A DNA stretch of 64,000 nt from Bacteroidales bacterium (GCA_041686075.1 JAWLEO010000004.1:11006-75005); one strand, 5' to 3'; positions 14,539 to 63,712 are shown, counted from the first letter of the stretch. The notes: generated by a model from the sequence alone, not told the origin. Program-made: numbers and translations.

Positions 14539-17500
14539 ATGAGTGATTACAATCTCTACTTCAGAAAAATAAACAATATCACAGGCTGGGTGGTTTTCCT
14601 GATCTCACTTACTGTTTATACACTTACACTGGAACCAACTGTAAGCTTCTGGGATTGCGGTGAGTTCATCCTTTCAGCCTGGAAACTGCAGGTTGGTCAT
14701 CCCCCCGGTGCACCCTTCTTCCTTCTGCTGGGACGTTTTTTCTCATTATTCAGTTTTGGCAATGAGTCAGGTGTGGCCATGATGGTTAATTTTCTTTCCG
14801 CAATGGCCAGTGCCTTTACGATCATGTTTCTTTTCTGGACAATTACACACATGGTAAGAAAGGTTTTCCTGGATGAGGAAGCTAAAACATTTACCGGCGT
14901 AGCCACTGTAATGGCCAGTGGTGTGATAGGGGCACTTACCTGCACTTTTTGTGACACTTTTTGGTTCTCTGCTGTTGAAGGAGAAGTATATGCTACATCT
15001 TCGCTGTTCACAGCCTTAGTATTCTGGGCCATCCTCAAATGGGAAGATGAAAAGGAGGAAGGGCTCAAAGGAAGGTGGCTGGTCTTGATAGCTTACCTGA
15101 TGGGATTATCTATAGGTGTACATCTGCTTAACCTGCTTGTCTTACCGGCTATTGTGCTGGTATATTATTTCAATACATACAAGGTGACTACCAGGGGTGC
15201 AATAAAAGCATTGCTGGCATCATTTGTCATATTGGGCTTCCTGGTCTTTTTACTCTTGCCCTATACAGTAAAAATTGCAGGCTGGTTTGAACTTTTATTT
15301 GTTAACGGCCTTGGCCTTCCTTTTAACTCGGGACTTTATTTTTATTTAATACTTCTTATTGCTGTGCTTATATGGAGTATGAACTACTCAATAAGACATC
15401 ATAAGGTTTTACTCAATTACGCAGTAACAATACTGGCAGTTATTTTACTCGGCTATTCATCATATGCACTCATACCTATAAGGGCTGATGCCCGTCCTCC
15501 CATGAATCAGAATGATCCTTCAGATGTGTTCTCAATGATATATTATGTAAACAGGGAGCAGTATGGCAGCACTCCTTTGCTGACAGGTAATTATTATACT
15601 GCACCGGTTATTGATATTAAAAAGAAGACCGGAGGCTATATCAAAGAAAATGGCCGGTATCTTCCCTATAAAAAGAACGAATATGTTTTTGATGACCGAT
15701 TTACCACCATCTTCCCCAGGATGTGGAGTCCCGAGGAAAGGCATCGCTCCGAGTATGAATACTGGGGCAGGGTAGAAGGTAATAAGGTCAGAATGAATAC
15801 CTCGAGTGGTCGCCAGGAATTCATAGTTCCGACTTTTGCAGAGAACCTCAGGTTCTTTTTCAATTACCAGCTAGGCTACATGTATGGACGCTACTTTATG
15901 TGGAATTTTGTTGGAAGGCAAAACGACATACAGGGTAATGGCAATGTAATACATGGTAACTGGATCAGCGGTATTGATGCCATAGATAATTCCCGACTTT
16001 GCGACCAGGATACATTACCCGATGAGCTAAAAAATAACCCGGCAAGAAACACTTACTACTTCCTCCCACTCATCCTGGGCCTGCTGGGTATGGCCTGGCA
16101 ATACAAAAAAGACCGGAAAGGATTCTGGGTTATAACTGTTCTTTTTGTTATGACAGGCATAGCCATAGTGGTGTATCTAAACCAGTATCCCCTACAACCC
16201 CGGGAGAGGGATTATGCATATGCAGGCTCATTTTACGCTTTCTCCATATGGGTGGGTTTGGGCTTATGCTTTATAGTGGATAAGCTGGGTAAAATTGTGC
16301 CTCACAAAATAATATTGCCCGTGGCTTTCCTTATATGCCTTGCAGCGGCACCTGTTCTTATGGCAGTTCAGAACTGGGACGATCATGACCGTTCAGGCCG
16401 GTATACTGCCCGGGATATAGGCAGTAATTACCTTAACAGTTGTGACGAGAATGCAGTATTGCTGACATATGGCGATAATGACTCGTTTCCCGTATGGTAT
16501 GCACAGAATGTAGAGGGTATAAGAACCGATGTAAGGGTTGCGAACCTGAGTTATCTCTCTGCCGGCTGGTATATCGATATGATGAGGCAGAAGGCATATG
16601 AATCTGAGCCAATAAAATTTACTCTCGGACCGGAGAAGTACAGGCCCGGCAAAAGGGAGCAACTGCCCGTAACAGACAGGATAAAGAGGCCTTATGATAT
16701 TATTGAACTGATAAAATTTGCGGGCTCGGATGAAAGGCAAAGCAAGATAGATTTCTCAGGCAGGGGTGATTATTATAATTACATCCCTTCAAGCAATTTC
16801 CTTGTGCCCGTAGATTCAGCCAGGGTAATGAAAAAGGGCATAGTGAAAGACTATCAGGCTGAAAGGTTGCTTAATAATGTGATATGGCATTATGACGACA
16901 GGGAAATGTATAAAAATAACCTGGCAGTAATGGATATGTTTGGCACCAGCAAATGGGGCCGTCCTTTTTATTTTGCCAGTACGGTTCCACCATCAAACTA
17001 TATGGGCCTGGATGATTACTTTCAGCTTGAAGGGCTGGCTTACCGGATAGTACCGCTGGATTCAACGGGAACCCGCACCCAGGACATAGGATATATTGAT
17101 ACGCGGCAGATGTATGAAAATGTAATGAACAGATTTAAATGGGGCAATGCTTCAGATCCGGATGTTTACCTTGATGAAAATAACAGGCGTATGTTCAGTA
17201 ACTTCAGGAGAATGTTCGGCATGTTAGCTGAAGGTCTTATAGAAGAGGGTGATACACTTAAAGCAAAAGAAGTACTGTACAAAAGCCTGGAAGAAATACC
17301 AGCATCTAAAATTGGACATAACTACTATTCAATTAATCTTTTCAATGGCTTATACAGGGTGGGAGAAAAAGAAGAGTCCATGAAGATAGCTGTTGACATA
17401 GTCAATAATGCCAGGGCATACCTTGAAATGGTACTTCAACTGGAGACTGCAAGAAGATACGATCTTGATTATGTAATTGGTTTAAACATACAGGCACTTA

Positions 17501-17607
17501 TCAGCCTCTATAACATGTCTGCCTCGATGGGCATAACTGACCTTATGGATCTCATTGAGCCGGATATTGACCGCTATTATAATGAACTAATTATGAAACC
17601 TTCATGA
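14539..17607 (+). CDS. DUF2723/TMEM260-like polytopic membrane protein (putative glycosyltransferase) with C-terminal soluble domain
   Basis: 1022 aa with a large N-terminal multi-TM region. The SFWDCGEF motif in the first loop is typical of this family. The helical C-terminal part is by-eye recognition only. Confidence 0.65.
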   Translation: MSDYNLYFRKINNITGWVVFLISLTVYTLTLEPTVSFWDCGEFILSAWKLQVGHPPGAPFFLLLGRFFSLFSFGNESGVAMMVNFLSAMASAFTIMFLFWTITHMVRKVFLDEEAKTFTGVATVMASGVIGALTCTFCDTFWFSAVEGEVYATSSLFTALVFWAILKWEDEKEEGLKGRWLVLIAYLMGLSIGVHLLNLLVLPAIVLVYYFNTYKVTTRGAIKALLASFVILGFLVFLLLPYTVKIAGWFELLFVNGLGLPFNSGLYFYLILLIAVLIWSMNYSIRHHKVLLNYAVTILAVILLGYSSYALIPIRADARPPMNQNDPSDVFSMIYYVNREQYGSTPLLTGNYYTAPVIDIKKKTGGYIKENGRYLPYKKNEYVFDDRFTTIFPRMWSPEERHRSEYEYWGRVEGNKVRMNTSSGRQEFIVPTFAENLRFFFNYQLGYMYGRYFMWNFVGRQNDIQGNGNVIHGNWISGIDAIDNSRLCDQDTLPDELKNNPARNTYYFLPLILGLLGMAWQYKKDRKGFWVITVLFVMTGIAIVVYLNQYPLQPRERDYAYAGSFYAFSIWVGLGLCFIVDKLGKIVPHKIILPVAFLICLAAAPVLMAVQNWDDHDRSGRYTARDIGSNYLNSCDENAVLLTYGDNDSFPVWYAQNVEGIRTDVRVANLSYLSAGWYIDMMRQKAYESEPIKFTLGPEKYRPGKREQLPVTDRIKRPYDIIELIKFAGSDERQSKIDFSGRGDYYNYIPSSNFLVPVDSARVMKKGIVKDYQAERLLNNVIWHYDDREMYKNNLAVMDMFGTSKWGRPFYFASTVPPSNYMGLDDYFQLEGLAYRIVPLDSTGTRTQDIGYIDTRQMYENVMNRFKWGNASDPDVYLDENNRRMFSNFRRMFGMLAEGLIEEGDTLKAKEVLYKSLEEIPASKIGHNYYSINLFNGLYRVGEKEESMKIAVDIVNNARAYLEMVLQLETARRYDLDYVIGLNIQALISLYNMSASMGITDLMDLIEPDIDRYYNELIMKPS

Positions 17608-28002: not shown

Positions 28003-30162
28003 CTAAATTGCTTCCAATGTCCCGTTTAGCCGGATATCTTCCGAAGAAGCACCGACCATCAATTTGATCTTCCCCCTTTCAAGAATGAAGTCATGTTTTT
28101 CTACGTTCCAGTACCTTAGCTCATCTGCTTCCAGGGGGATGGTAACAGTCATGCTTTCACCTGCTGGGATATGGATACGCTTGAAGCCCTTTAAAGCCTT
28201 GACCGGTCTTTTAACTTTTGAATCAGGGAAGCTTACATAAAGTTGTACCACTTCATCGCTGTTAACCGTACCGGTGTTTTGCACAGTGAGAGAAACATCA
28301 ACTACCTCTCCTTCCTTTAGTGTTTCCTTTTCAAGCTTAAGGTCAGAGTACTCAAATGAAGTGTAGCTAAGCCCATGTCCAAAGGGGAAAAGAGGTTCAT
28401 GTTTGTCGTACATATATGTGCGGCCATGGCGGATATTGTAATCAAGTATTGGCAGCAGGTTATCTATTGAAGCTGACCATGTTTGTACCAGCCGGCCGGC
28501 AGGGCTTACTTTGCCGAAGAGTATATCTGCCAGTCCGTTTCCCATCTCCTGGCTTGATTGTGTAATGTGAAGGATAGCCGGTACATTTTCTTTAGACCAG
28601 TTAATGGCATATGGGAAGCTGGAAACCATTACAAGCACGGTATTTGGATTGGCAGCCTTTACCAGCTTCACCAGGTCTTCCTGCTCAATGGATATTGCCT
28701 GGCGGTCCACTTCTTCGCGCCCGTCACTGTATACATGATTCTGTCCCCAACCGAGGCCGTAGCTTAGGGGATGGTTGCCGATGCATACTATGGCAATATC
28801 CGATTCACGGGCTGCTGTAACGGCTGAATCCGCCTTATTGGTTTTTGCAAATTTAACTTCGAGATTTTCGCCGGCAGCCTTACTGATGCCGTCAAGTATT
28901 GAGACTCTGTAGGGAGGAGTGCCCGAATACCAGTCCGGGACGACAAGGTTGGCACTGGGACCTATCACGGCGACTGATTTGATTTCTTCCTTGTCCAAAG
29001 GTAAGAGGCCATCATTCTTCAGCAGGACTATCGATTTGACCGTGGCCTCCCTTACCAGGTCCCTGGCTTCCTGCTTTGTCCATGGTTTTGTTATGTCATC
29101 AATACCGATATTGTTGTAAGGATTTTCGGGATCCTCATCAAGTAGACCTAGCCTGAGCATTACCCTGAGGTTACTTCTTACGGCCTCATCTATTTCTTCT
29201 TCAGTCACAAGGCCCTGGTTCAGTGCTTCCCTGAGGGCTGATTTATAATCATCCAGGAAAACAGTTATTCCTGCTTTAATGCATTCAGCGGCTGCTTCAG
29301 GGAAATTATCATAGTACTGATGTGAATTGACCAGGTGGGTAAAAGCGCCACCATCGGTACAGATGATTCCGTTCTGGCCCCATTCTTTCACAGTTATATT
29401 TTCCAGCATGGGGTGGACGGTACAGGGAATACCGTTGTATTTGTTATAGGCAGCCATGAAAGCCCTTGATCCGCCTTCAACAACTCCTTTATAGAAAGGG
29501 TAGGAATAATATTCACGGAAGAGGCGTTCATCAAAGTCGGACGAGTTGATATAGCGGTTATTCTCGTTGCTGTTTGCCAGGAAGTGCTTCATCAGGGAGG
29601 CTGTTTTCCAGTAGCGGGGGTGGTCACCCTGGAGGCCTTTCACAAAGGCGCCTGTAAGGACGGAAGCGAGGTAGGCATCTTCACCGTAGCATTCTTCAGT
29701 GCGGCCCCAGCGTATATCCCTCCCCAGGTCTGCGTTGGGAGCAAGTAAGATAAGGCCGGCACTTTTATAGTCTTCATTCTGTGCCAGGAAACGTGTCTCG
29801 TACGCTTCCCATGCGGCTATTTCCTGGTGCAGCACAGGGTCCCACATCTGTGCCAGGCCATAAGCCTGGGGGAAGGTGGTGGTGGGCGCCTCACCCTCGC
29901 CTTTTACGGCCCAGTTAGCCGGCCCGCTTAGGGCAAGTCCGTGAAGGCCTTCAACAAAGCGCGTTCCTTCCACCCCCAGCCTGGAGATGCCTGGCAGGCG
30001 GGACGACAGGTGGTCGATTTTCTCATCCATGGTCATCAGGGAGATGAGGTTGTCAAGGCGTTCTTCATCGGGAAGATCAGTGTTTCTGAACGGGTATTCC
30101 TCTGTCTGCGAACAGGACAGGGCAGTAATGATTATAAAAATCAGAAATAATGCTTTTTTCAT
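28003..30162 (-). CDS. glycoside hydrolase family 3 lipoprotein (beta-glucosidase/xylosidase-like)
   Basis: 719 aa. Signal MKKALFLIFIIITALSC, GH3 N-terminal barrel, nucleophile-region GIICTDGGA (cf. SDCGA/SDW), alpha/beta sandwich, and a C-terminal FnIII-like domain (VSFPDS..RPVKALKGF..I). Confidence 0.85.
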   Translation of the reverse strand: MKKALFLIFIIITALSCSQTEEYPFRNTDLPDEERLDNLISLMTMDEKIDHLSSRLPGISRLGVEGTRFVEGLHGLALSGPANWAVKGEGEAPTTTFPQAYGLAQMWDPVLHQEIAAWEAYETRFLAQNEDYKSAGLILLAPNADLGRDIRWGRTEECYGEDAYLASVLTGAFVKGLQGDHPRYWKTASLMKHFLANSNENNRYINSSDFDERLFREYYSYPFYKGVVEGGSRAFMAAYNKYNGIPCTVHPMLENITVKEWGQNGIICTDGGAFTHLVNSHQYYDNFPEAAAECIKAGITVFLDDYKSALREALNQGLVTEEEIDEAVRSNLRVMLRLGLLDEDPENPYNNIGIDDITKPWTKQEARDLVREATVKSIVLLKNDGLLPLDKEEIKSVAVIGPSANLVVPDWYSGTPPYRVSILDGISKAAGENLEVKFAKTNKADSAVTAARESDIAIVCIGNHPLSYGLGWGQNHVYSDGREEVDRQAISIEQEDLVKLVKAANPNTVLVMVSSFPYAINWSKENVPAILHITQSSQEMGNGLADILFGKVSPAGRLVQTWSASIDNLLPILDYNIRHGRTYMYDKHEPLFPFGHGLSYTSFEYSDLKLEKETLKEGEVVDVSLTVQNTGTVNSDEVVQLYVSFPDSKVKRPVKALKGFKRIHIPAGESMTVTIPLEADELRYWNVEKHDFILERGKIKLMVGASSEDIRLNGTLEAI

Positions 30163-50052: not shown

Positions 50053-51462
50053 TTATTGCACTTCAATATCAAAGATTTCATGCCGGTCAAGGTTTTTCCA
50101 GTAAAGTATGGCTTTTTGCCGAACCAGTTCCCAGTATATATTGCTGTCGAGCCCGTAAATGAAATTGATCTCTTTCAGTTCGTTTCTTATCGCAGAAGCT
50201 AAATCATCAACAAGACTCAGTTTTATAGTTCTGTCCATATAGGTAAAGCTTGCTTGTGGTACACCTTCATCATTGACCACCTCAAGCAAGCCATGCCCTG
50301 GTGTTGCTCCGCAGCTTACCTGCAGGCCGTCATTCAAGCAGCTTACCGGGGTTACTGAACCTGCATACGAGACAACATTCATTTCATCCACACCTATATG
50401 GAAATATTCCCTGGCTCTTATGCCCATCTTTAAACCTATTATTGCATATATACCGAGATGGCGGTGTAACTCATTTGTAAGTACACCAGCTTCAAATTCC
50501 TCCTTGCCATGGCGAGAAATTATATCCGGTATGTATTCCTGTATATCTGGAAAATAAAATGATGTATCGGAAGGTATGTCCTTGAATACCTGGTTCCTGT
50601 TGACCGTATTACCCGATAGGATATCACATATCGCCTCATCATCTATATTTTCCATTACCGGCCTGTAAAAAGAAATATTACCGAGCGAATCACCTGTAAA
50701 CATTTCCGGGTAATGAAGATAAAGGGGTATCATGTCATCTACAAGTCCAAATATGAAGTCGTGATGCTTTTGAGAATTTAAAAGTTCGGATGTTTTCTTA
50801 GCATATGGAGTGTTGATCTCTTTGATCTTTTGCTGAAGCAGGCTGTCATAAAACTCCGGGAAGAAGTATCCCACCACTTTTACAGGTATATCCTTCTCCA
50901 TCATCTTCATGGCCGATAATGTATCGAGCTCGTAATTGAAGCCCCCCAGCGGATTAATGCCATCATTACTCCAGATAAGATTTTTTACCTGGCTGAAAAG
51001 AACAGGATGTTCTTCAGAAAACCGGTAAGCGGTGTTAAGACTTGCCAGTGAAATAAAGCTCACTGGTGTTTTTTCGTGCTGCAGCACATAGCTCAGCACC
51101 TTGTTATAATTCTCGGCCTTATCCGGGTTTATCCCGGTGATATCTGCCCAGTCAAAGGCCATGGGCAGAGGCATTTCCCTGAATGCGGAATTTCTGTTTA
51201 TACCTACTTTAAGACCCTGATGGTAATAATGATTGAGCAAGCTCCTGACTTTAATATATGACTCTTCGGCAGGCATAAGACCGCCGGATGCAATAATTGC
51301 CAGCACCCTGACGTCAGGAGAGGCAAGTAACATGTTTATGGCCTTCAGATCGTCCAGGCCCCCGTCAGTGTCTATTATAACATAATGGGATGGCTTCCAT
51401 GGATGGGCAAATAATATTTGCGTACAAAATATAAGTAAGAGAGCACTTATTATCTTTTTCAT
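50053..51462 (-). CDS. secreted fusion: nucleoside-hydrolase-like domain + FmdE-like domain
   Basis: 469 aa with signal MKKIISALLLIFCTQILFA. N-terminal VIIDTDGGLDDLKAINMLL matches the IUNH DxDxxxDD motif. C-terminal ELHRHLGIYAIIGLKMGIRA..VSCLNDGLQVSCGATPGHGLLEV resembles the FmdE family (HGH.CPG..iG.r.. / C..D.iQ...GCT.Gkg.L) with the first metal motif degenerate. Confidence 0.6.
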   Translation of the reverse strand: MKKIISALLLIFCTQILFAHPWKPSHYVIIDTDGGLDDLKAINMLLASPDVRVLAIIASGGLMPAEESYIKVRSLLNHYYHQGLKVGINRNSAFREMPLPMAFDWADITGINPDKAENYNKVLSYVLQHEKTPVSFISLASLNTAYRFSEEHPVLFSQVKNLIWSNDGINPLGGFNYELDTLSAMKMMEKDIPVKVVGYFFPEFYDSLLQQKIKEINTPYAKKTSELLNSQKHHDFIFGLVDDMIPLYLHYPEMFTGDSLGNISFYRPVMENIDDEAICDILSGNTVNRNQVFKDIPSDTSFYFPDIQEYIPDIISRHGKEEFEAGVLTNELHRHLGIYAIIGLKMGIRAREYFHIGVDEMNVVSYAGSVTPVSCLNDGLQVSCGATPGHGLLEVVNDEGVPQASFTYMDRTIKLSLVDDLASAIRNELKEINFIYGLDSNIYWELVRQKAILYWKNLDRHEIFDIEVQ

Positions 51463-51563: not shown

Positions 51564-53084
51564 ATGAAAAGATTCTGGTTCATTTTCATCCCTGGCCTGA
51601 TACTGGGGATTCTTTTGGTTCTTGGAAGTAACAGTGCCATAAGGCTTACTTCCAGGAATGAATTCTGCGCAAGTTGTCATATTCATCCCCAGGCTACCAC
51701 CTCATGGAAACAGTCAGTACATTATATTACGAGGTCAGGTGATAAAACAGCCTGTGTCGAATGTCACCTTCCCCCTAAAGGCCAGGGGCATATACCTGCC
51801 AAGATAAAGACCGGTGTAAGGGATGTATGGGGACAGTGGTTTAAGGATCCGGAGAGTTTTAACTGGGAAGAAAAATCAAGGCTCGAAAATGCCAGGAAGC
51901 ATGTACCGGAGAGTTCGTGCCTCTATTGCCATGAAACATTGTTTACACCCGAGTTGACAAGGGAAGGAGAAGAGGCCCATCTTTATTATGACCAGGCTGA
52001 AAAAACCGATGATCTTCATTGTATTAACTGCCACCTGAATGCAGGTCATTATATCGAGGGGTATACTTATGGCAGCAATGAATCATTCGGGTTGGAGGAG
52101 AAGCCCGAAATAATTTATGACAGGCCGGCAAATGTTATATCATTCAACTCATACACTGAATATATACCGGGCTCTTCCGTTTCCTTTCAGATGGTGGCAA
52201 TCCCCGGAGGTGAATTCACCATGGGCAGCCCGGAGAATGAGCCTTTCAGGGATAAGGATGAAGGGCCGCAGGTTAAAGTAAAGATCAGTCCCTTTTTCAT
52301 GGGAAGGATTGAGGTTACCTGGAATGAATACCTTGCTTTTTATGAGCAGACCTCTGCTGAAGGGCGCACAACAGATACAGAAGGGGTAAGAACAGGGTCG
52401 GCTGTCGATGCCATAAGCGGTGCCACACCCCCATATGGTCAGCCCGACCAGAACTGGGGTATGGGTGACAGGCCTGTGATTTCTATTACCCATCATGCCG
52501 CCCAAACGTATTGTAAATGGCTTAGCCTGGTTACGGGGAAGACCTACCGCCTGCCTACAGAAGGGGAATGGGAATATGCCTGCAGGGCAGGTACGGAGAC
52601 ACCGTATTTCTTTGAGGGCGATCCTGAAGATTTTCAACGAAGAGGATTTTTGTCGTGGATAAGGAAAAATGATACCTCAAAAATTAATACATTTGTCGTA
52701 TACCGGGCCAATAGTTCGGCTAAGACACAGGAGCCTGGAGTGGTGAAACCAAATCCCTTTGGCTTAAAAAATATGCCGGGTAACGTGGAGGAATTTTGTT
52801 CCGATTGGTATTCAGACAGTACATATGCCATGTATCCTGAATCTGGAGTGACAGATCCTATAGGACCACCCTCGGGTGAAGAAAAGGTAATAAGAGGGGG
52901 ATCTTTCAGGGACCCGGCCAGTGAGCTGAGGTCAGCAGAACGTGATCATACAAAAACAGAACGGTGGCTGATGACAGATCCCCAGATACCAAAGAGCATA
53001 TGGTGGTATTCTGATTGTTACCACGTCGGCTTCAGGGTAGTATGTGAGTACGATGAGAACACAGGCAAAACAATGAACGAGTAA
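51564..53084 (+). CDS. membrane-anchored tetraheme NapC/NirT-like cytochrome c fused to an FGE/SUMF1-family domain
   Basis: 506 aa with N-terminal TM (FWFIFIPGLILGILLVLG). Four CxxCH motifs: CASCH, CVECH, CLYCH, CINCH. The FGE-sulfatase-type domain follows (MVAIPGGEFTMGS, PV..ITHHAAQTYCKWLS, YRLPTEGEWEYACRAG, NPFGL.NM.GNV.EFC.DWY, IRGGSF, VGFRVV). Confidence 0.8.
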   Translation: MKRFWFIFIPGLILGILLVLGSNSAIRLTSRNEFCASCHIHPQATTSWKQSVHYITRSGDKTACVECHLPPKGQGHIPAKIKTGVRDVWGQWFKDPESFNWEEKSRLENARKHVPESSCLYCHETLFTPELTREGEEAHLYYDQAEKTDDLHCINCHLNAGHYIEGYTYGSNESFGLEEKPEIIYDRPANVISFNSYTEYIPGSSVSFQMVAIPGGEFTMGSPENEPFRDKDEGPQVKVKISPFFMGRIEVTWNEYLAFYEQTSAEGRTTDTEGVRTGSAVDAISGATPPYGQPDQNWGMGDRPVISITHHAAQTYCKWLSLVTGKTYRLPTEGEWEYACRAGTETPYFFEGDPEDFQRRGFLSWIRKNDTSKINTFVVYRANSSAKTQEPGVVKPNPFGLKNMPGNVEEFCSDWYSDSTYAMYPESGVTDPIGPPSGEEKVIRGGSFRDPASELRSAERDHTKTERWLMTDPQIPKSIWWYSDCYHVGFRVVCEYDENTGKTMNE

Positions 53085-53098
53085 TTATTATTAATCTT

Positions 53099-53275
53099 AT
53101 AACTGATAACCTTGTCCACTGTAGCAAGGCACGGATCTGGAACCGAGGAGCCTGAGCTTGCTATGGCAAGCGATGGTGACGAGCTCGACGAAATGAGTTG
53201 GCACGAGTCTGGAGACTCGCGCCAGCGATTTAAGTCAGATCCGCGCCAGCGAAGGAGGACTCATAACTGATAACC
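53099..53275. repeat. nested GC-rich hairpin element flanked by a 13-bp direct duplication (ATAACTGATAACC)
   Basis: ATAACTGATAACC occurs at 53099-53111 and 53263-53275. Outer clamp is GGCACGGATCT (53128-38) / AGATCCGCGCC-AGCG (53237-51). Inner clamp is GGCACGAGTCT (53200-10) / AGACTCGCGCC-AGCG (53213-27). An extra stem GCTTGC-tatg-GCAAGC lies at 53156-71. Confidence 0.8.
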
Positions 53276-54622
53276 ATGAAAAATTCCATATCACGACGAA
53301 GCTTTCTTGGCAAAGCTGCAGCAGCAGGTGCAGCAGGTGCCGTAATACCCTCTTTTTTGAACTCATGTGCCCCCGATGGCAGTAAGAGAGATATCATAGT
53401 ACCTGAATTCCTTGACCAGGCACCCGACGGACCTGAATTAAAGGCCGGACTTATCGGCTGCGGTGGTCGTGGCACAGGAGCGGCAATTGATTTCCTTTCA
53501 TCCGGCCCGAACCTGAAAGTAATTGCCCTGGGTGATGTGTTCACCGACAGGCTTAATTCATGCAGGGAGAGGCTGGTGAAGGAGAAAAATAATGAAGTGG
53601 CCGATGAAAACTGTTTTATTGGCTTTAATGCTTTTCAGGAGGTAATTGACTCTGGTGTGGATGTAATAATTCTTGCCACTCCACCTTTCTTCAGACCTGA
53701 GCATTTTGCTGCTGCAGTGGATGCACGAAAACATGTTTTCATGGAGAAACCTGTTGCAGTAGATCCTCTAGGTGCAAGGTCAATAATGGCCACTGCAAAA
53801 AAAGCAGAGAGCATGGGCCTCAGTGTCGTGACGGGAACCCAGCGCAGGCACCAGAGGGATTATGCCAATACTTATGCACAGGTTGCGGCAGGCACCATGG
53901 GTGAGATAGTAAGTGCAAACTGCTATTGGAACCAGAGTAAACTGTGGCACCGTAATCCAAACGCAGAGTGGACTGAAATGGAATATATGATCAGGAATTG
54001 GGTAAACTGGTGCTGGCTCTCAGGTGACCACATAGTTGAACAACATGTTCATAACCTGGATGTTATCAACTGGTTTACCGGTAAACACCCTGTCCAGGCT
54101 GTAGGTTTCGGATCACGACACAGGAGGGTTACGGGAGACCAGTATGATAATTTCAGTGTAGATTTTGTTCTGGATAATGGTGTACACGTCCACAGTATGT
54201 GCCGGCAGATCAATGCTTGTGCAAATAACGTTTCAGAGCATATACAGGGAACCCTCGGTTCATCCAATTGCCGGGATTCAATAGTTGATCTCAGTGGACA
54301 GGTGATATGGAAATATGATTATCCCCTGAATGATGAGGGAGAAGAAACAAACAGCGTAAGTATCAGCCCTTATGTCCAGGAACATATTGACCTTGTAACT
54401 GCAATCAGGACAGACAAGCCTTTCAATGAAGCAGAAAATACAGCTATCTCTACAATGGTTGGCATCATGGGTCGTATATCATCTTACACGGGAAAACTGG
54501 TGACATGGGATGAAATGATGAATTCAGACCTTAAGCTCGGACCCCAGGTGTTCGAATTTGGACCGGTAGACATTCCAAAAGAAGTACCTGTTCCCGGTGA
54601 ACCATATAAGCCCGATGTGTAG
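53276..54622 (+). CDS. Tat-exported Gfo/Idh/MocA-family oxidoreductase
   Basis: 448 aa. Twin-arginine signal SRRSFLGKAAAAGAAGAV, Rossmann GLIGCGGRGTGA, and the family EKP motif (FMEKPVA). Confidence 0.85.
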   Translation: MKNSISRRSFLGKAAAAGAAGAVIPSFLNSCAPDGSKRDIIVPEFLDQAPDGPELKAGLIGCGGRGTGAAIDFLSSGPNLKVIALGDVFTDRLNSCRERLVKEKNNEVADENCFIGFNAFQEVIDSGVDVIILATPPFFRPEHFAAAVDARKHVFMEKPVAVDPLGARSIMATAKKAESMGLSVVTGTQRRHQRDYANTYAQVAAGTMGEIVSANCYWNQSKLWHRNPNAEWTEMEYMIRNWVNWCWLSGDHIVEQHVHNLDVINWFTGKHPVQAVGFGSRHRRVTGDQYDNFSVDFVLDNGVHVHSMCRQINACANNVSEHIQGTLGSSNCRDSIVDLSGQVIWKYDYPLNDEGEETNSVSISPYVQEHIDLVTAIRTDKPFNEAENTAISTMVGIMGRISSYTGKLVTWDEMMNSDLKLGPQVFEFGPVDIPKEVPVPGEPYKPDV

Positions 54623-54683
54623 GGTACTGTTATTTCTCGCTATAACTTTTATACTGGATGCCTGCTCATACAATGAGCCTTTA

Positions 54684-55271
54684 TTATTTAGTTTTGCCGT
54701 GTCGGTGCAAGAGTGATTTCTTATGTGGCGGCGGTGCTGCCTGGTGGAATACTTCGCGGTTGACCAGCCTTATGGATTCAATTGTATAAAGGGCACGGGG
54801 GTTATAATTATTTATTATTTCAAGCACAGGCTTGACCATGCTTCTTTTCACTATGATATAAACCACACCTACTTCTCCTTCAACACCGTGTGCCTGTATG
54901 AAGGTAACACCAAAGCCTTTATCCCTTAATGCATCCACAAGGTCTAAGGCTTCGCTCTTTGTTATTACCCTTATCATTTCATGGCCTATGGCCAGGCGCT
55001 CTTCCAGTAACATCCCGATGTAATTACCCGCAGCAAATCCTCCGGCATAAGCAAGGTATGCAATCCAGTTGTCAAGATCCTGGAATATCCTGCTTATCGC
55101 AAGTAACCATATAAGTATTTCGAAGAAACCAATCAGGGGTGCCACATTTTTCATACCCTTGGATACAAATATTATCCTTATTGTTCCAAGTGAGACATCT
55201 GCAATACGTGCCAGGAAGATGAGAAGAGGAAGAACAAGGTAGGAGAAAATGCCGGTTTCAAGAAATTCCAT
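54684..55271 (-). CDS. UPF0316/DUF2179-type small membrane protein
   Basis: 195 aa with 3 N-terminal TM helices (RIADVSLGTIRIIFVSKG pattern) and a C-terminal soluble DUF2179-like domain. By-eye family recognition. Confidence 0.6.
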   Translation of the reverse strand: MEFLETGIFSYLVLPLLIFLARIADVSLGTIRIIFVSKGMKNVAPLIGFFEILIWLLAISRIFQDLDNWIAYLAYAGGFAAGNYIGMLLEERLAIGHEMIRVITKSEALDLVDALRDKGFGVTFIQAHGVEGEVGVVYIIVKRSMVKPVLEIINNYNPRALYTIESIRLVNREVFHQAAPPPHKKSLLHRHGKTK

Positions 55272-55312
55272 TTCGTAAGGGTTTAGATAATATAATTTAT
55301 TTAACTAATCTA

Positions 55313-56677
55313 TTATTCCAGTGCTTTTTTCAGGGCTTCTGTTGTGGTGTAATATTTGACGATCATGTTGGGCACCTCCCATTCTGGCATCTCTCCTTTC
55401 TCCAGGTATTCCAGGTATTTTTCCATTACCTGGCCGAAATGGGCCTCGTGACCCAGCCTGTATTTTTCAGGTATTATGAATTTCCATTTCTTGTCGTTGA
55501 CCTCCAGGTATTCAACTCCATCCCACGGTAATTCATCAAGTGCACTTTTCAGTATATCTTCAAACCCAGGGAGGGTATTTTCAAGTTCAATGTACAGTAC
55601 AGGTATATATCCTTCCTTCTCCCCATGCCTGATCACCAGGTTCGACTTTGTCCCGCGCATTATTGAATAATGAGTATCTCCTGTCCTTTCAGGTGCCCGG
55701 TATTTCCATACAACAACTATCCTGGCAAAGGTGTCTTTTATCTTATACAATATTTCTCCGTTTGCATATACGTGGAGCTCACCATCAATAATATCTTTTT
55801 CAAGATATGGTGGGAAGTCATCCATTCCGGTTACTTTGCTGAACTGGTCAGCACTCAGGACCGTAGGCCACCTGCGGGCTTCAATAATTTCAATATCAGA
55901 TCTTTCAAGTATCTCACCCGGGTAACATTCCCATTGAATGAGGTCAACCAGGTGGGTCGTTACATCCACAATACCTTCTCCCTGTTGCTCGGTGTCAAAG
56001 AACCACGGGGGCCTGACAAGGGCGGAACCGGCCACATATTTAAAGAAGTGATGTACACTCTCTTTGGTAACAGCTGGTTTATCGGGGCTTCCCCTTACTA
56101 GTTGACCGAAAATTTCATTGTTTTGAGACAGGGCTTTCTGAAGCATTGTTGTGATCTCGTATCTCTCGGTCATAATATCATAGAGCAGGACATTATTATC
56201 TTCAGCTATGTTGAATGCCTTTTCCAGCATGGGAAATTTATCCGGAGTAATAACCATGGGCTTATCGGCCAGTACATTCAAGCCGGACTTGATCGATTCA
56301 AGAATATAATCCGTTTTCTTTTGATTATTGCCTGCCAGCACAACAAGATTCCCCGGTTGCTTCACAAGCATCTGTTCAAAGAAATCGGGACCGGTATATA
56401 CCTTTTCTTCCCAGGCTGTGGGATTTTCAGACCTATTATTAAAAGACTTTATCTTTTCCAGGTGCTGATTGAGCTCTTTTCCTTCAGGGGCGAAAACAAA
56501 TACTTCGGGAGATACTCCTTCGTACATATTCTTCTGTACCAGTGCGGCATGGAAATGCCCGGGGTCAACAGTCATAAGTCTAACGTTTTTCATCTTATCA
56601 TTACCGTCTTTTTTACCTGTACCGCAGGATGTTACTGCAATAATGAAAATGATTAACAGGTATTTAATAAATTGCAT
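55313..56677 (-). CDS. lipoprotein oxidoreductase (Gfo/Idh/MocA-related, 'DPGHFHA' type)
   Basis: ORF 55313..56752; likely start is MQFIKYLLIIFIIAVTSC (ATG at complement 56675-56677), 1 nt after the stop of the upstream gene. MTVDPGHFHAALV..VLADKPMVI resembles the putative-oxidoreductase family common in Bacteroidetes. Confidence 0.65.
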   Translation of the reverse strand: MQFIKYLLIIFIIAVTSCGTGKKDGNDKMKNVRLMTVDPGHFHAALVQKNMYEGVSPEVFVFAPEGKELNQHLEKIKSFNNRSENPTAWEEKVYTGPDFFEQMLVKQPGNLVVLAGNNQKKTDYILESIKSGLNVLADKPMVITPDKFPMLEKAFNIAEDNNVLLYDIMTERYEITTMLQKALSQNNEIFGQLVRGSPDKPAVTKESVHHFFKYVAGSALVRPPWFFDTEQQGEGIVDVTTHLVDLIQWECYPGEILERSDIEIIEARRWPTVLSADQFSKVTGMDDFPPYLEKDIIDGELHVYANGEILYKIKDTFARIVVVWKYRAPERTGDTHYSIMRGTKSNLVIRHGEKEGYIPVLYIELENTLPGFEDILKSALDELPWDGVEYLEVNDKKWKFIIPEKYRLGHEAHFGQVMEKYLEYLEKGEMPEWEVPNMIVKYYTTTEALKKALE

Positions 56678-56678
56678 A

Positions 56679-58100
56679 TTATATTCCTTTAAAATTCTTA
56701 AGTGTATAATTTGTCCCATAGGGCCATCTCTGTGGCCTGGAAAGCATTCCATTTGCCCGGTCGTTATTTATGAATTTTTCTTTATCCGGATCCCAATAAA
56801 GTTTGCCAGGCAATTTCATAGCGATATGATGAAGCAGGCATGCAGAACATGAACGGTGTCCTATTTCAGCTGTTGCTACAGGGTCTTTGCGGCTGACAAT
56901 ACAGTCAATCCAGTTTTTATGTTGTTCCGGGCTCTCATAGAGGTGTAGCTCATCTGGTCCTATAACTGAATCCAGTATTTTTTTGTCCGAGGCATCCAGT
57001 GCCTGGAGCTCCGTGTCTTCTGCCCCGGGGTCAGAAGCAGTAACCTTAACCGCTCCCCTGGAAACAAAGATCCATCCCTCTGATCCCACAAATTTTACCC
57101 CGTTGGGGTATTCTCCGCTTAGATGCATAATTACGCCATTGGCATACCTTGCAGTGGTCTTAAACTTACCATGTACATTCCACAGGCCACTCTCGGGAAA
57201 TTCCGCATAACCTTCCACTTCCACAGGACCTGTATATTCTGTTCCCAGGCCCCAGTGAGCTGTATCAATATGATGGGCACCCCAGCCGGTGATCATTCCT
57301 GCCCCGAATTGTTCGCACCGCAGCCACCCGGGCCTGCTGCCTATATCCGTTTGTGAATGCACCCTTTTCTCGGTGTAATATACATAGGGGGTTGAACCCA
57401 GCCACATATCATAATCCAGGTTGTTGGGCACGGGCATTTCGGGTTCTTTTGGTCCGGATGGATCGCCCGGAAGGCCAACATAAATTGTATGTATATCGCC
57501 TATTCTGCCATTTCTCACCAGTTCACACGCTTTCTTAAACTGGGGCCATGGATCAAGTGATCTTTGCTGGCTTCCCTGCTGAAAGATGCGGCCTGTACGG
57601 TGAATGATATTGCTCATCTGCCGGCCTTCTTCAATTGTGAGTGAGGCGGGTTTCTGAAGATAAATATCCTTACCTGCGAGTGCGGCTTCTATAGCAGGCT
57701 GGGCGTGCCAGTGATCAGGGGTTGATATAATCACGGCATCAATCGATGGGTCCAGAAGCATTTCATGATAATCCCGGTAAAGTGAAATATCAACAAAATT
57801 CTTTTTACCTGTTTTTTCCTCATAAAATTTCAGGGTCCACTTTTTGCCCTCTTTTGCCCTCTTGCTATCTACATCGGCAATTGCTACCAGCCGTGTAATA
57901 TCATGCATCAAAGTCATAGGCAAATCATGAGTCATAGCTATTCTTCCAAAACCTATCTGGGCTATGTTGATCTTATTACTGGGTGCACTGTGTCCAAATA
58001 CAGAAGATGGTACTATGGTCGGCAATACAATTGTTCCGGCAGCACCTGCCAGGCTGTTCCTGATAAATTTACGTCTGGTAATATTTTTTCTGCATGTCAT
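56679..58100 (-). CDS. Tat-exported Gfo/Idh/MocA-family oxidoreductase
   Basis: 473 aa. Twin-arginine signal TRRKFIRNSLAGAAGTIVLP, Rossmann IAQIGFGRIA, and the YLQKP (EKP-type) motif. Confidence 0.85.
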   Translation of the reverse strand: MTCRKNITRRKFIRNSLAGAAGTIVLPTIVPSSVFGHSAPSNKINIAQIGFGRIAMTHDLPMTLMHDITRLVAIADVDSKRAKEGKKWTLKFYEEKTGKKNFVDISLYRDYHEMLLDPSIDAVIISTPDHWHAQPAIEAALAGKDIYLQKPASLTIEEGRQMSNIIHRTGRIFQQGSQQRSLDPWPQFKKACELVRNGRIGDIHTIYVGLPGDPSGPKEPEMPVPNNLDYDMWLGSTPYVYYTEKRVHSQTDIGSRPGWLRCEQFGAGMITGWGAHHIDTAHWGLGTEYTGPVEVEGYAEFPESGLWNVHGKFKTTARYANGVIMHLSGEYPNGVKFVGSEGWIFVSRGAVKVTASDPGAEDTELQALDASDKKILDSVIGPDELHLYESPEQHKNWIDCIVSRKDPVATAEIGHRSCSACLLHHIAMKLPGKLYWDPDKEKFINNDRANGMLSRPQRWPYGTNYTLKNFKGI

Positions 58101-58111
58101 TGTTTTACATT

Positions 58112-58963
58112 TTATTCCGGTAATGTATTGGTTTTTACACTTGTATAATCAGGTCCACTGCCATCTCCAATGGCCCATATTATTCCGCCTTTTATGTGGT
58201 TGATAAGGTCCGGATCGGAATAATGTTTTATTGAGTGTCCCAGGGCAGTGTAGAACACCCTTCCTCCTTCAAATTCATGGTACCAGGCCAGTGGGAAATA
58301 GTTCCCAAACACTTCCCCGGGGTATATATCCTTTTGATCATCTTCAATAGTGCGTAGATCAGCGGCTAATAAGATATTAATGTCAGGGTTAAGATGTTTG
58401 AGGTAATAGCATTCGTCCTCCCAGTGCCATATGTTTCCCAGAAAACTTGTAGATGGATGATCATGGTCTATAACTTTTATTTCAAACGGTTGGTAGGGAG
58501 GGTGCCTCTCAAATTTCCCCCCCAGCATAGCCCAGAACCATTGCCATTCCCGTTCCGATCCGCAGGCTGAATGAATGCCCACCACACTTCCTCCGGCGTG
58601 TAGATACCTCACGAAAGCCAGTTTCTGCTCATCGGTGTCAAAGGTTTCATTATTGGTGTTTGATAATACAATGCAATGATACCTTTTCAGGTTATCCTCG
58701 TTTATAACTATAGGATTATCACTAACATCAACATTCATCTCATTTTGCTTTCCTATCTTTTCCAGTGCTTTAACGCTTGCTTTTATATTATCATGGACAT
58801 AGCCTTCACCGTTTTTTGTGTATACAAGTATGTTGGTGTTATAATCTGGTTTCATTTTGCAATCGTTATTGAAGGATAACATTGCGGTCAGAAGGATTAT
58901 GAGAATCTTATTCATATTTAAATTTTGTGATATTCTTTTCATAAAAATATTACTACTCCACAA
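58112..58963 (-). CDS. ThuA-domain (trehalose-utilisation-like) secreted protein
   Basis: 283 aa in the ORF; start is ambiguous (M1, MKRIS or MNKILIILLTAMLSF). ThuA pattern ILVYTKNGEGYVHD, YHCIVLSNT, GGSVVGIHSA, LGGKFERHP, HPST, WEDECYY. Confidence 0.78.
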   Translation of the reverse strand: MWSSNIFMKRISQNLNMNKILIILLTAMLSFNNDCKMKPDYNTNILVYTKNGEGYVHDNIKASVKALEKIGKQNEMNVDVSDNPIVINEDNLKRYHCIVLSNTNNETFDTDEQKLAFVRYLHAGGSVVGIHSACGSEREWQWFWAMLGGKFERHPPYQPFEIKVIDHDHPSTSFLGNIWHWEDECYYLKHLNPDINILLAADLRTIEDDQKDIYPGEVFGNYFPLAWYHEFEGGRVFYTALGHSIKHYSDPDLINHIKGGIIWAIGDGSGPDYTSVKTNTLPE

Positions 58964-63328: not shown

Positions 63329-63712
63329 ATGCCACGCGTATTCAAAGCTACCAATATAGAGAATGAAGAAAAAGAGGTAAAGAAGGATTACCTAGACCGG
63401 CACATGCCCCATGTAATTTGTGAAGACAGGGTAAAGAAAGGAGAGGCGTTCAGGGTGAAAGTAAGGATGGGTGAACATTACACCCACCCAGATGATTATG
63501 ATCATTATATAAGCAACATCCAGTTATGGAACAGGGAAACACTACTGGCAGAAACAAGGTATTCATCGGGAGCATACGGGAATAAAGCTTCCAATGTGGA
63601 GGTTGATTTCTACATTATTGCTCCCGAGGTATCGATGAACCTATCGGCTATGGCCGTATGTACAAAGCATGGCTTGTGGCAGAGTGAAGATAAACCCGTG
63701 AAAGTTATTTAA
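63329..63712 (+). CDS. superoxide reductase-like protein (desulfoferrodoxin Fe-binding domain, single-domain type)
   Basis: 127 aa. HMPHV (cf. KHVPV), HPDDYDHYI (cf. HPM...HYI.WI) and CTKHGLW (cf. CN.HGLW) give the His4-Cys ligand pattern. Confidence 0.55.
   Translation: MPRVFKATNIENEEKEVKKDYLDRHMPHVICEDRVKKGEAFRVKVRMGEHYTHPDDYDHYISNIQLWNRETLLAETRYSSGAYGNKASNVEVDFYIIAPEVSMNLSAMAVCTKHGLWQSEDKPVKVI

Follow-up and report, generated by a model that had tools for sequence, protein, structure and literature searches.

How periplasmic glycoside dehydrogenases of the Gfo/Idh/MocA family (GFO enzymes below) are re-oxidised in the cell is acknowledged as open in the literature, where cytochromes are one of the possibilities named. 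The question is raised by a locus in a 64,000-nucleotide stretch of a Bacteroidales bacterium genome (GCA_041686075.1, JAWLEO010000004.1:11006-75005), in which genes for two GFO enzymes with twin-arginine translocation (Tat) signals, a third oxidoreductase and a ThuA-family protein lie near a gene for a NapC/NirT tetrahaem cytochrome c fused to a domain resembling formylglycine-generating enzymes (FGEs). The whole stretch is called the window here, and positions are counted from its first letter. An initial annotation had taken the neighbourhood for one periplasmic glycoside 3-dehydrogenase-type module coupled to the respiratory chain through the cytochrome fusion. We found that it consists of two separable units: unit A, in which the fusion is followed by GFO1, and unit B, which contains ThuA, GFO2 and a PF16490 oxidoreductase. 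Our reading, to which we give slightly less than an even chance, is that these are two separable sets of exported sugar-type oxidoreductases from families that work with a membrane cytochrome, and that the GFO enzymes are re-oxidised via the fusion.

Conserved linkage between the fusion and GFO1

The fusion gene (51564-53084, plus strand) is followed on the same strand by GFO1 (53276-54622), whose product combines PF01408 with a C3-type C-terminal domain (PF22725) and begins with a Tat signal (motif SRRSFLGK; TIGR01409, 25.1 bits; cutoff 16.7). Scanning a single genome for each species with an alignment of fusion homologues gave 80 loci, all from uncultured Bacteroidales-type metagenome-assembled genomes and 63-89% identical to the window's fusion. 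In 70 of these loci, 1.6 kb or more was available downstream of the fusion, and 56 of the 70 carried a GFO1 orthologue downstream on the same strand, either within 400 bp (37 loci, median gap 62 nt) or 1.4-9.7 kb away behind an insert (19 loci). The other 14 loci had no match in that scan. They do not contradict the pair, because in 13 of them the sequence runs out within a SusC/SusD-type insert or directly behind it, and the remaining one (L012) carries GFO1 about 30 nt after the fusion, as found by tblastn. The inserts were composed either of SusC, SusD, DUF6057 and a PD40 propeller or of a NupG-like major facilitator superfamily transporter; SusC/SusD were inserted in 24 loci and the transporter in 7. 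The flanking genes are rearranged among loci while the order from the fusion to GFO1 persists; a fumarase gene, for instance, is located upstream in most loci and downstream in the window's clade. The tie by gene order between the fusion and a Tat-exported GFO enzyme, on which the initial annotation relied, was thus borne out, and the pair forms the conserved core of an operon among these uncultured Bacteroidales.

The genes around the pair were also recurrent. Downstream of GFO1, a Tat-exported xylose-isomerase-like TIM barrel was present in 30 of 40 loci and a seven-bladed lactonase-like propeller, also exported, in 24 of 40. The TIM barrel and SusC/SusD beside GFO1 fit a periplasmic pathway of sugar or glycoside oxidation. 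Among solved structures, GFO1 is closest to inositol dehydrogenases and to the C-glycoside enzyme DgpA (E = 1e-10 to 1e-6). Upstream, the divergent neighbour of the fusion is a protein with IU_nuc_hydro and FmdE domains in 54 of 65 loci; in the window this exported protein is encoded at 50053-51462 on the minus strand (PF01156, PF02663), and its Sec signal is kept in orthologues. This protein and the NupG-like transporter of the 7 loci hint at riboside or nucleoside-type substrates. The nucleoside-hydrolase-like domain of the 50053-51462 protein carries a DTDGGLDD motif.

In the window itself, the spacer between the fusion and GFO1 is 191 nt long, as opposed to 64 nt in the closest relative (L001). 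The window's spacer is widened by a 151-nt GC-rich insert that L001 lacks and that 13-bp direct repeats ATAACTGATAACC flank on either side; it is located after the stop of the fusion and before the ATG of GFO1 (53099-53275, plus strand). The insert is highly structured (folding energy -67.3 kcal/mol, z = -5.2), and the spacer had no Rfam match at E <= 1. It looks like a small element of the miniature inverted-repeat transposable element (MITE) or repetitive extragenic palindromic (REP) kind, and it may affect co-transcription of the fusion and GFO1. A partial copy of it was observed at L082:1483-1530.

A paralogous operon joins the fusion to two GFO types and ThuA

Two fusion paralogues are arranged in tandem in locus L037 (10001-17454). 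The second shares 57% identity with the fusion of the window, and behind it on the same strand come genes for a GFO1-type GFO, a GFO2-type GFO (PF19051) and a ThuA-family lipoprotein. A search with this paralogue retrieved a large separate fusion subfamily, and operons were looked up in eight loci, namely L037 and seven loci on long contigs (L161-L167). An operon of the fusion, a GFO with a C3-type domain, a GFO with a C2-type domain and ThuA was present in seven of the eight (L037 and L162-L167), and L161 had only the fusion followed by a GFO. The genes are separated by about 10 to 45 nt or overlap slightly, and all the products bear Tat or lipoprotein signals. In L162-L167 the operon is located in a different chromosomal context from that of the window, with gapA and msrAB upstream and glycosyltransferase family 2 and tetratricopeptide-repeat genes downstream. 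Identity to the window's proteins is 53-57% for the fusion, about 55% for GFO1, 35-38% for GFO2 and 24-28% for ThuA. The ThuA proteins of this operon contain a long low-complexity insert rich in Pro, Ala, Gly and Gln.

The association of the fusion with two GFO types and ThuA, as first proposed, thus receives independent support at the family level. Taken together, unit A and the four-gene operon show that selection has kept a cytochrome fusion, two GFO types and ThuA together. A conserved operon joining GFO enzymes and ThuA to a membrane tetrahaem cytochrome also provides a concrete and testable candidate for the re-oxidation of such enzymes.

The fusion protein as a candidate link to the quinone pool

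The fusion scored well above the cutoff for the NapC/NirT family (PF03264, 100.8 bits; cutoff 24.1) and matched the FGE-sulfatase family PF03781 with 146.2 bits. Like NapC, NrfH, TorC and CymA, it has an N-terminal membrane anchor, read from the sequence as the hydrophobic stretch MKRFWFIFIPGLILGILLVLG, and four CxxCH motifs, which begin at residues 35, 64, 119 and 153. Unlike members of the NapC/NirT family, it carries a fused FGE-sulfatase-like domain, and its gene partner is an NAD(P)-type GFO and not a molybdo-, haem- or copper-reductase. The scores of the fusion against the NCBIfam equivalogs for NapC/NirT members were all far below their cutoffs. Neither the four haem motifs nor the distal His residues vary within or between the two fusion subfamilies. 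It is the only CxxCH-bearing open reading frame (ORF) in the whole 64-kb window, which agrees with its being singled out initially as the only candidate electron outlet nearby. From these sequence features, the fusion is a candidate link to the quinone pool.

No His of the FGE-like domain is invariant across the two subfamilies, and the domain's only invariant Cys residues are Cys317, Cys340 and Cys412. In true FGEs, the RGGS[FY] motif is closely followed by two catalytic Cys residues that bind copper. The fusion is not a true FGE: alignments to FGE structures end at GGSF, and beyond RGGSF comes RDPASELRSAERD, which contains no Cys. The domain resembles the PvdO- and GldK-type members of the family, which are not FGEs. 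A search of 50%-identity representatives with the fusion was dominated by giant multi-FGE repeat proteins and returned few full-length fusion clusters (P0364, P0365, P0371, P0462). Our literature searches found no paper on a NapC-FGE fusion or on its pairing with GFO enzymes, no match for ThuA with Gfo/Idh/MocA, and, for NapC combined with formylglycine, tetraheme and oxidoreductase in Bacteroidetes, only an unrelated Caldithrix genome paper.

NapC, NrfH, TorC and CymA mostly oxidise quinol. Electrons could accordingly run in this usual direction in the fusion too, from menaquinol to a reductive or maturation reaction carried out in the periplasm by the FGE-like domain or the GFO enzymes, and the resemblance of that domain to PvdO- and GldK-type proteins is in keeping with such a role. 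We regard this as improbable, since thermodynamic reasoning makes the reduction of GFO-bound NAD(P)+ by menaquinol an uphill step, and the FGE-like domain is devoid of an invariant His or a Cys cluster suggesting a catalytic metal site. In the reading that we prefer, the electrons would instead enter the fusion from the GFO enzymes.

Unit B is a dispensable accessory module

Unit B is located on the minus strand and reads, in order of transcription, ThuA (58112-58915, PF06283), GFO2 (56679-58100; PF01408 with a C2-type C-terminal domain, PF19051; motif TRRKFIR) and a 'DPGHFHA' lipoprotein oxidoreductase (55313-56677; PF16490, Oxidoreduct_C, 397.9 bits; signal ending in IIAVTSC). The ORF list and the domain scans placed these genes and GFO1 where they had been annotated, and the gaps of 11 nt between the ThuA stop and the GFO2 ATG and of 1 nt between GFO2 and the PF16490 gene were verified on the sequence itself. 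The ThuA gene at 58963 was upheld as a gene (PF06283, 211.7 bits against a cutoff of 33.4) but not in its start: 58963 is the first possible start, a TTG, and 58942 is another upstream alternative, while the ATG at 58915 is the likely one because the orthologues, of 267-270 aa, begin at MNK. A Cys lipobox is present in these orthologues. For the PF16490 gene, the mechanical ORF start at 56752 was set aside in favour of 56677, where the MQFIKY lipoprotein signal begins.

Export signals were found on all the products of the neighbourhood, as had been claimed: Tat signals on GFO1 and GFO2 and lipoprotein or Sec signals, retained in orthologues, on ThuA and the PF16490 protein. In orthologues drawn from 160 related loci, a twin-arginine motif scored as xRRxF[LIVM] was conserved in 51 of 52 GFO1 and 13 of 14 GFO2 proteins. 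Because of this conservation, the Tat motifs are not artefacts of wrong start codons, a concern attached to the original proposal.

The conservation of unit B differs from that of unit A. Among the fusion loci, a complete unit B was found only in L002, L004 and L011, which are near relatives of the window, and in the metagenome locus L081. L001, the closest relative with about 90% DNA identity, retains the fusion, GFO1, the DUF2179 gene and the PF16490 gene, and ThuA is gone; at the site of the window's ThuA and GFO2 there are two GFO2 remnants of 117 bp and 242 bp (L001:15147-15493, 87-88% identical), which indicate a recent decay of the ThuA/GFO2 pair in the nearest relative. L005, L006 and L009 have neither ThuA nor GFO2, and their PF16490 gene lies directly beside fumarase.

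Metagenomes scanned with an alignment of PF16490 proteins yielded 80 loci (54-76% identity), and neighbours were counted in the 53 of them with at least 1.5 kb upstream. A GFO2-type gene was located within four genes upstream of the PF16490 gene in 20 of the 53 (immediately adjacent in 12), DUF6807 was near it in 20, ThuA in 5 and the fusion in 1. The PF16490 gene stands alone, in a housekeeping context of gcvP, a URO-D-like gene and ddl, in about 25 of the 80 loci. The relatives of unit B are spread across Bacteroidota, nearly always with no cytochrome beside them, and recur in metagenome loci with DUF6807, SusC/SusD or UxuA. Besides L081, the sole cytochrome in the 80 PF16490 loci is a protein with DUF7133, HEAT and mono-haem cytochrome c domains, 1.2 kb downstream of the PF16490 gene (L157:10534-12891). 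DUF6807 (formerly 'PmoA family') precedes ThuA or GFO2 in many loci and is not found in the window. In one locus (L126:3-2027), a single 674-aa DUF6807-ThuA fusion protein is encoded just upstream of a GFO2-PF16490 pair, which ties the DUF6807 and ThuA families together.

Unit B is thus a dispensable accessory module. The co-conservation of the fusion with Tat-GFO and ThuA genes that was suggested initially holds for the fusion and GFO1 (56/70 loci) and for the paralogous operon, and fails for the window's own ThuA-GFO2-PF16490 string, as the fusion is present in only 1 of the 53 loci around PF16490 relatives. We also considered the whole string as one conserved five-gene system and rejected it, given the deletion of ThuA and GFO2 in L001 and the frequent occurrence of the PF16490 gene alone among housekeeping genes.

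The PF16490 protein matched PDB entry 4oo3 (E = 7e-156), which is labelled merely as a 'hypothetical protein'. Its family has an invariant DPGHFHAALVQK motif at the place where Rossmann-type GFO enzymes have GxGxxG.

Relationship to characterised enzymes and pathways

The best solved relatives of GFO2 are glycoside 3-dehydrogenases of the AL3/BT2158 type (8tdf, E = 1.4e-20; 8tdh, E = 4e-17). In the alignment to 8tdf, GFO2 keeps the Gln that contacts NAD (Gln161) and the His that contacts OH-3 (His252), and Leu, Asp and Gly replace the sugar-binding Arg192, Trp195 and Asp248 of AL3. Membership in the BT2158 family itself was rejected for both enzymes, which scored 127 bits (GFO2) and 32.8 bits (GFO1) against the NF058561 cutoff of 750 bits. 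With both GFO enzymes far below this cutoff and neither a lyase nor a hydratase partner in the window, the glycoside 3-dehydrogenase-type label of the initial annotation was not sustained, and for the window's enzymes it is an analogy only.

The N-terminal domain of GFO2, and only this domain, also matched the GH109 alpha-N-acetylgalactosaminidase 2ixa (E = 1.2e-8), and Tat-exported GFO-like glycosidases are common in Bacteroidota. The Tat-GFO enzymes might then be NAD+-dependent glycoside hydrolases with a GH109/GH4 mechanism, in which the cofactor cycles within each turnover and no electron outlet is needed. This seems quite unlikely to us: the GH109 similarity is confined to the Rossmann domain, the TIM barrel and lactonase genes that accompany GFO1 in other loci point to the processing of oxidised sugars, and a conserved operon with a tetrahaem cytochrome of the quinol-dehydrogenase type would be left unexplained.

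BT2158 is a Tat-exported periplasmic glycoside 3-dehydrogenase that has been proposed to work like glucose-fructose oxidoreductase (GFOR), since the limited electron transport chain of B. thetaiotaomicron probably precludes cytochrome c-dependent dehydrogenases (PMC8121099; PMC11300592). In the study of the AL and BT enzymes, NAD was tightly bound and the enzyme stalled in the reduced state in vitro. The window's neighbourhood is similar to BT2156-BT2160 and AL1-AL5 in that GFO2 is Tat-exported and has AL3-type enzymes as its best solved homologues, and the GFO1 orthologues adjoin a xylose-isomerase-like TIM barrel as AL3 adjoins AL1. It differs in that a search of the 64-kb window found no DUF1080 or xylose-isomerase-like partner, and in that the partner conserved here is a tetrahaem cytochrome fusion, in contrast to the internal cofactor recycling assumed for B. 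thetaiotaomicron.

The main rival to re-oxidation through the fusion follows from this comparison. Unit B may be a self-contained, redox-neutral periplasmic pathway like BT2156-2159/AL1-4, in which bound NAD is recycled by reduction of a keto-sugar and the adjacency to the fusion is inherited synteny. Such a pathway would be consistent with the AL3-type relatives of GFO2, with two oxidoreductases in one operon, with the preference of the literature for internal recycling of bound NAD, with the retention of the fusion in L001 after ThuA and GFO2 had been lost, and with the recurrence of the unit B module without cytochromes in the PF16490 loci (20/53 for GFO2-type genes and for DUF6807, 1/53 for the fusion). 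The count covers 8 kb only, however, and a cytochrome elsewhere in those genomes is possible. In addition, genes of the GFO2-type and ThuA families share an operon with the fusion paralogue in 7 of 8 loci, unit B of the window has neither DUF1080 nor a TIM-barrel lyase/hydratase nearby, and Arg192, Trp195 and Asp248 of AL3 are unconserved in GFO2. On balance we hold this rival to be rather unlikely.

Three further systems were compared. ThuAB forms 3-keto-disaccharides in rhizobia (Sinorhizobium meliloti) and Agrobacterium (A. tumefaciens) (PMC8121099). The window resembles it in having a ThuA-family protein 11 nt from a same-strand Gfo/Idh/MocA oxidoreductase. Unlike ThuAB, however, the proteins are exported (as lipoprotein and by Tat), a third oxidoreductase (PF16490) follows, and no thuEFGK-type importer of the ATP-binding cassette (ABC) family is found between 46 and 64 kb; the scanned ORFs of the window include a single annotated ABC protein, an unrelated one at 22-25 kb. 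The LacABC type (EC 1.1.99.13) is an FAD-dependent glucoside 3-dehydrogenase with a cytochrome c subunit and shares with our reading the concept of periplasmic glycoside oxidation at C3 with electrons passing to a c-type cytochrome. It differs in its components: no GMC flavoprotein or small Tat 'hitch-hiker' subunit was seen among the genes scanned, and the dehydrogenases here belong to Gfo/Idh/MocA. The GFOR of Zymomonas mobilis is, like GFO1 and GFO2, a Tat-exported Gfo/Idh/MocA enzyme and has non-dissociable NADP; the PDB matches are weak (E ~1e-6) and the similarity is confined to the fold. Unlike what we propose, GFOR works without a cytochrome partner and regenerates its cofactor in a ping-pong reaction with a second sugar.

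A possible route of GFO re-oxidation through the fusion

If the GFO enzymes are re-oxidised via the fusion, the route might run as follows. The Tat-exported GFO enzymes would carry tightly bound NAD(P) and, in the periplasm, would oxidise a hydroxyl on a sugar, glycoside or riboside to a 3-keto-type product. The reduced enzymes would then be re-oxidised through the haem domain of the fusion, from which the electrons would pass on to menaquinone. The FGE-like domain would act as a docking or recognition module and not as an oxidase, because it lacks the catalytic Cys pair of true FGEs. The analysis establishes the genes present, their export signals, the conserved order and the paralogous four-gene operon; we infer the substrate class, the direction of electron flow, any physical contact between GFO enzymes and cytochrome, and any use of the fusion by the window's own unit B. 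The initial interpretation is upheld in part: it has strong backing where the fusion and GFO1 are concerned and at the level of families, and weak backing with regard to the window's ThuA-GFO2-PF16490 string and to the specific glycoside 3-dehydrogenase label.

Several points weigh against it. A flavin or similar mediator is normally required for a hydride to pass from bound NAD(P)H to haems that accept one electron at a time, and none is evident. In the window, the structured 151-nt insert parts the fusion from GFO1, and the TIM barrel and lactonase have no homologue anywhere in the 64 kb, nor do they occur in the closest relatives. A cytochrome hardly ever neighbours the orthologues of GFO2, ThuA and the PF16490 protein of the window (1/53 loci), and ThuA and GFO2 were lost in L001 with the fusion and GFO1 staying behind. 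The operon versions of GFO2 and ThuA are only distantly related to those of the window at the identities given above, and the seven four-gene operons, being of one synteny, represent one conserved origin and not seven independent ones. Finally, for the nearest characterised enzymes the literature favours internal redox-neutral recycling of bound NAD and names cytochromes as a possibility.

A more specific version casts the fusion as a dedicated quinone-linked re-oxidase for Tat-exported GFO enzymes whose NAD(P) is non-exchangeable, and gives ThuA the part of an accessory subunit. We consider this version doubtful; were it true, it would constitute a previously undescribed respiratory module that passes electrons from periplasmic sugars or glycosides into the menaquinone pool of anaerobic Bacteroidales, and it would give ThuA-family proteins a biochemical role. 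Re-oxidation of the GFO enzymes via the fusion, in its general form, would tie glycan foraging to anaerobic respiration in environmental Bacteroidales and would assign roles to three poorly understood families, namely ThuA, PF16490 and the FGE-like cytochrome fusion.

Unit boundaries and other features of the window

A gene absent from the initial annotation lies between the two units. It encodes an integral membrane protein with DUF5698 and DUF2179 (PF18955 and PF10035; 54684-55271, minus strand), is located 41 nt downstream of the PF16490 gene and adjoins that gene within the window's clade, and it may close the minus-strand unit. Between it and GFO1 stands a terminator-like hairpin (54664-54678). 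Since scans for promoter-like sites (23 against 18.3 ± 4.7 in shuffled sequence) and terminator-like sites (5 against 7.5 ± 3.0) did no better than shuffled sequence, the operon boundaries rest on gene gaps and conservation. The GH3 gene (28003-30162) was confirmed to be unlinked to the dehydrogenase region.

Searching the whole window with Rfam at gathering thresholds gave only three tRNAs (30538, 44754, 62901). A desulfoferrodoxin-type superoxide reductase is encoded at 63329-63712 on the plus strand, which suggests an anaerobic lifestyle. Also on the plus strand, the gene at 14539-17607 encodes a TMEM260-like putative protein O-mannosyltransferase of 1022 aa.

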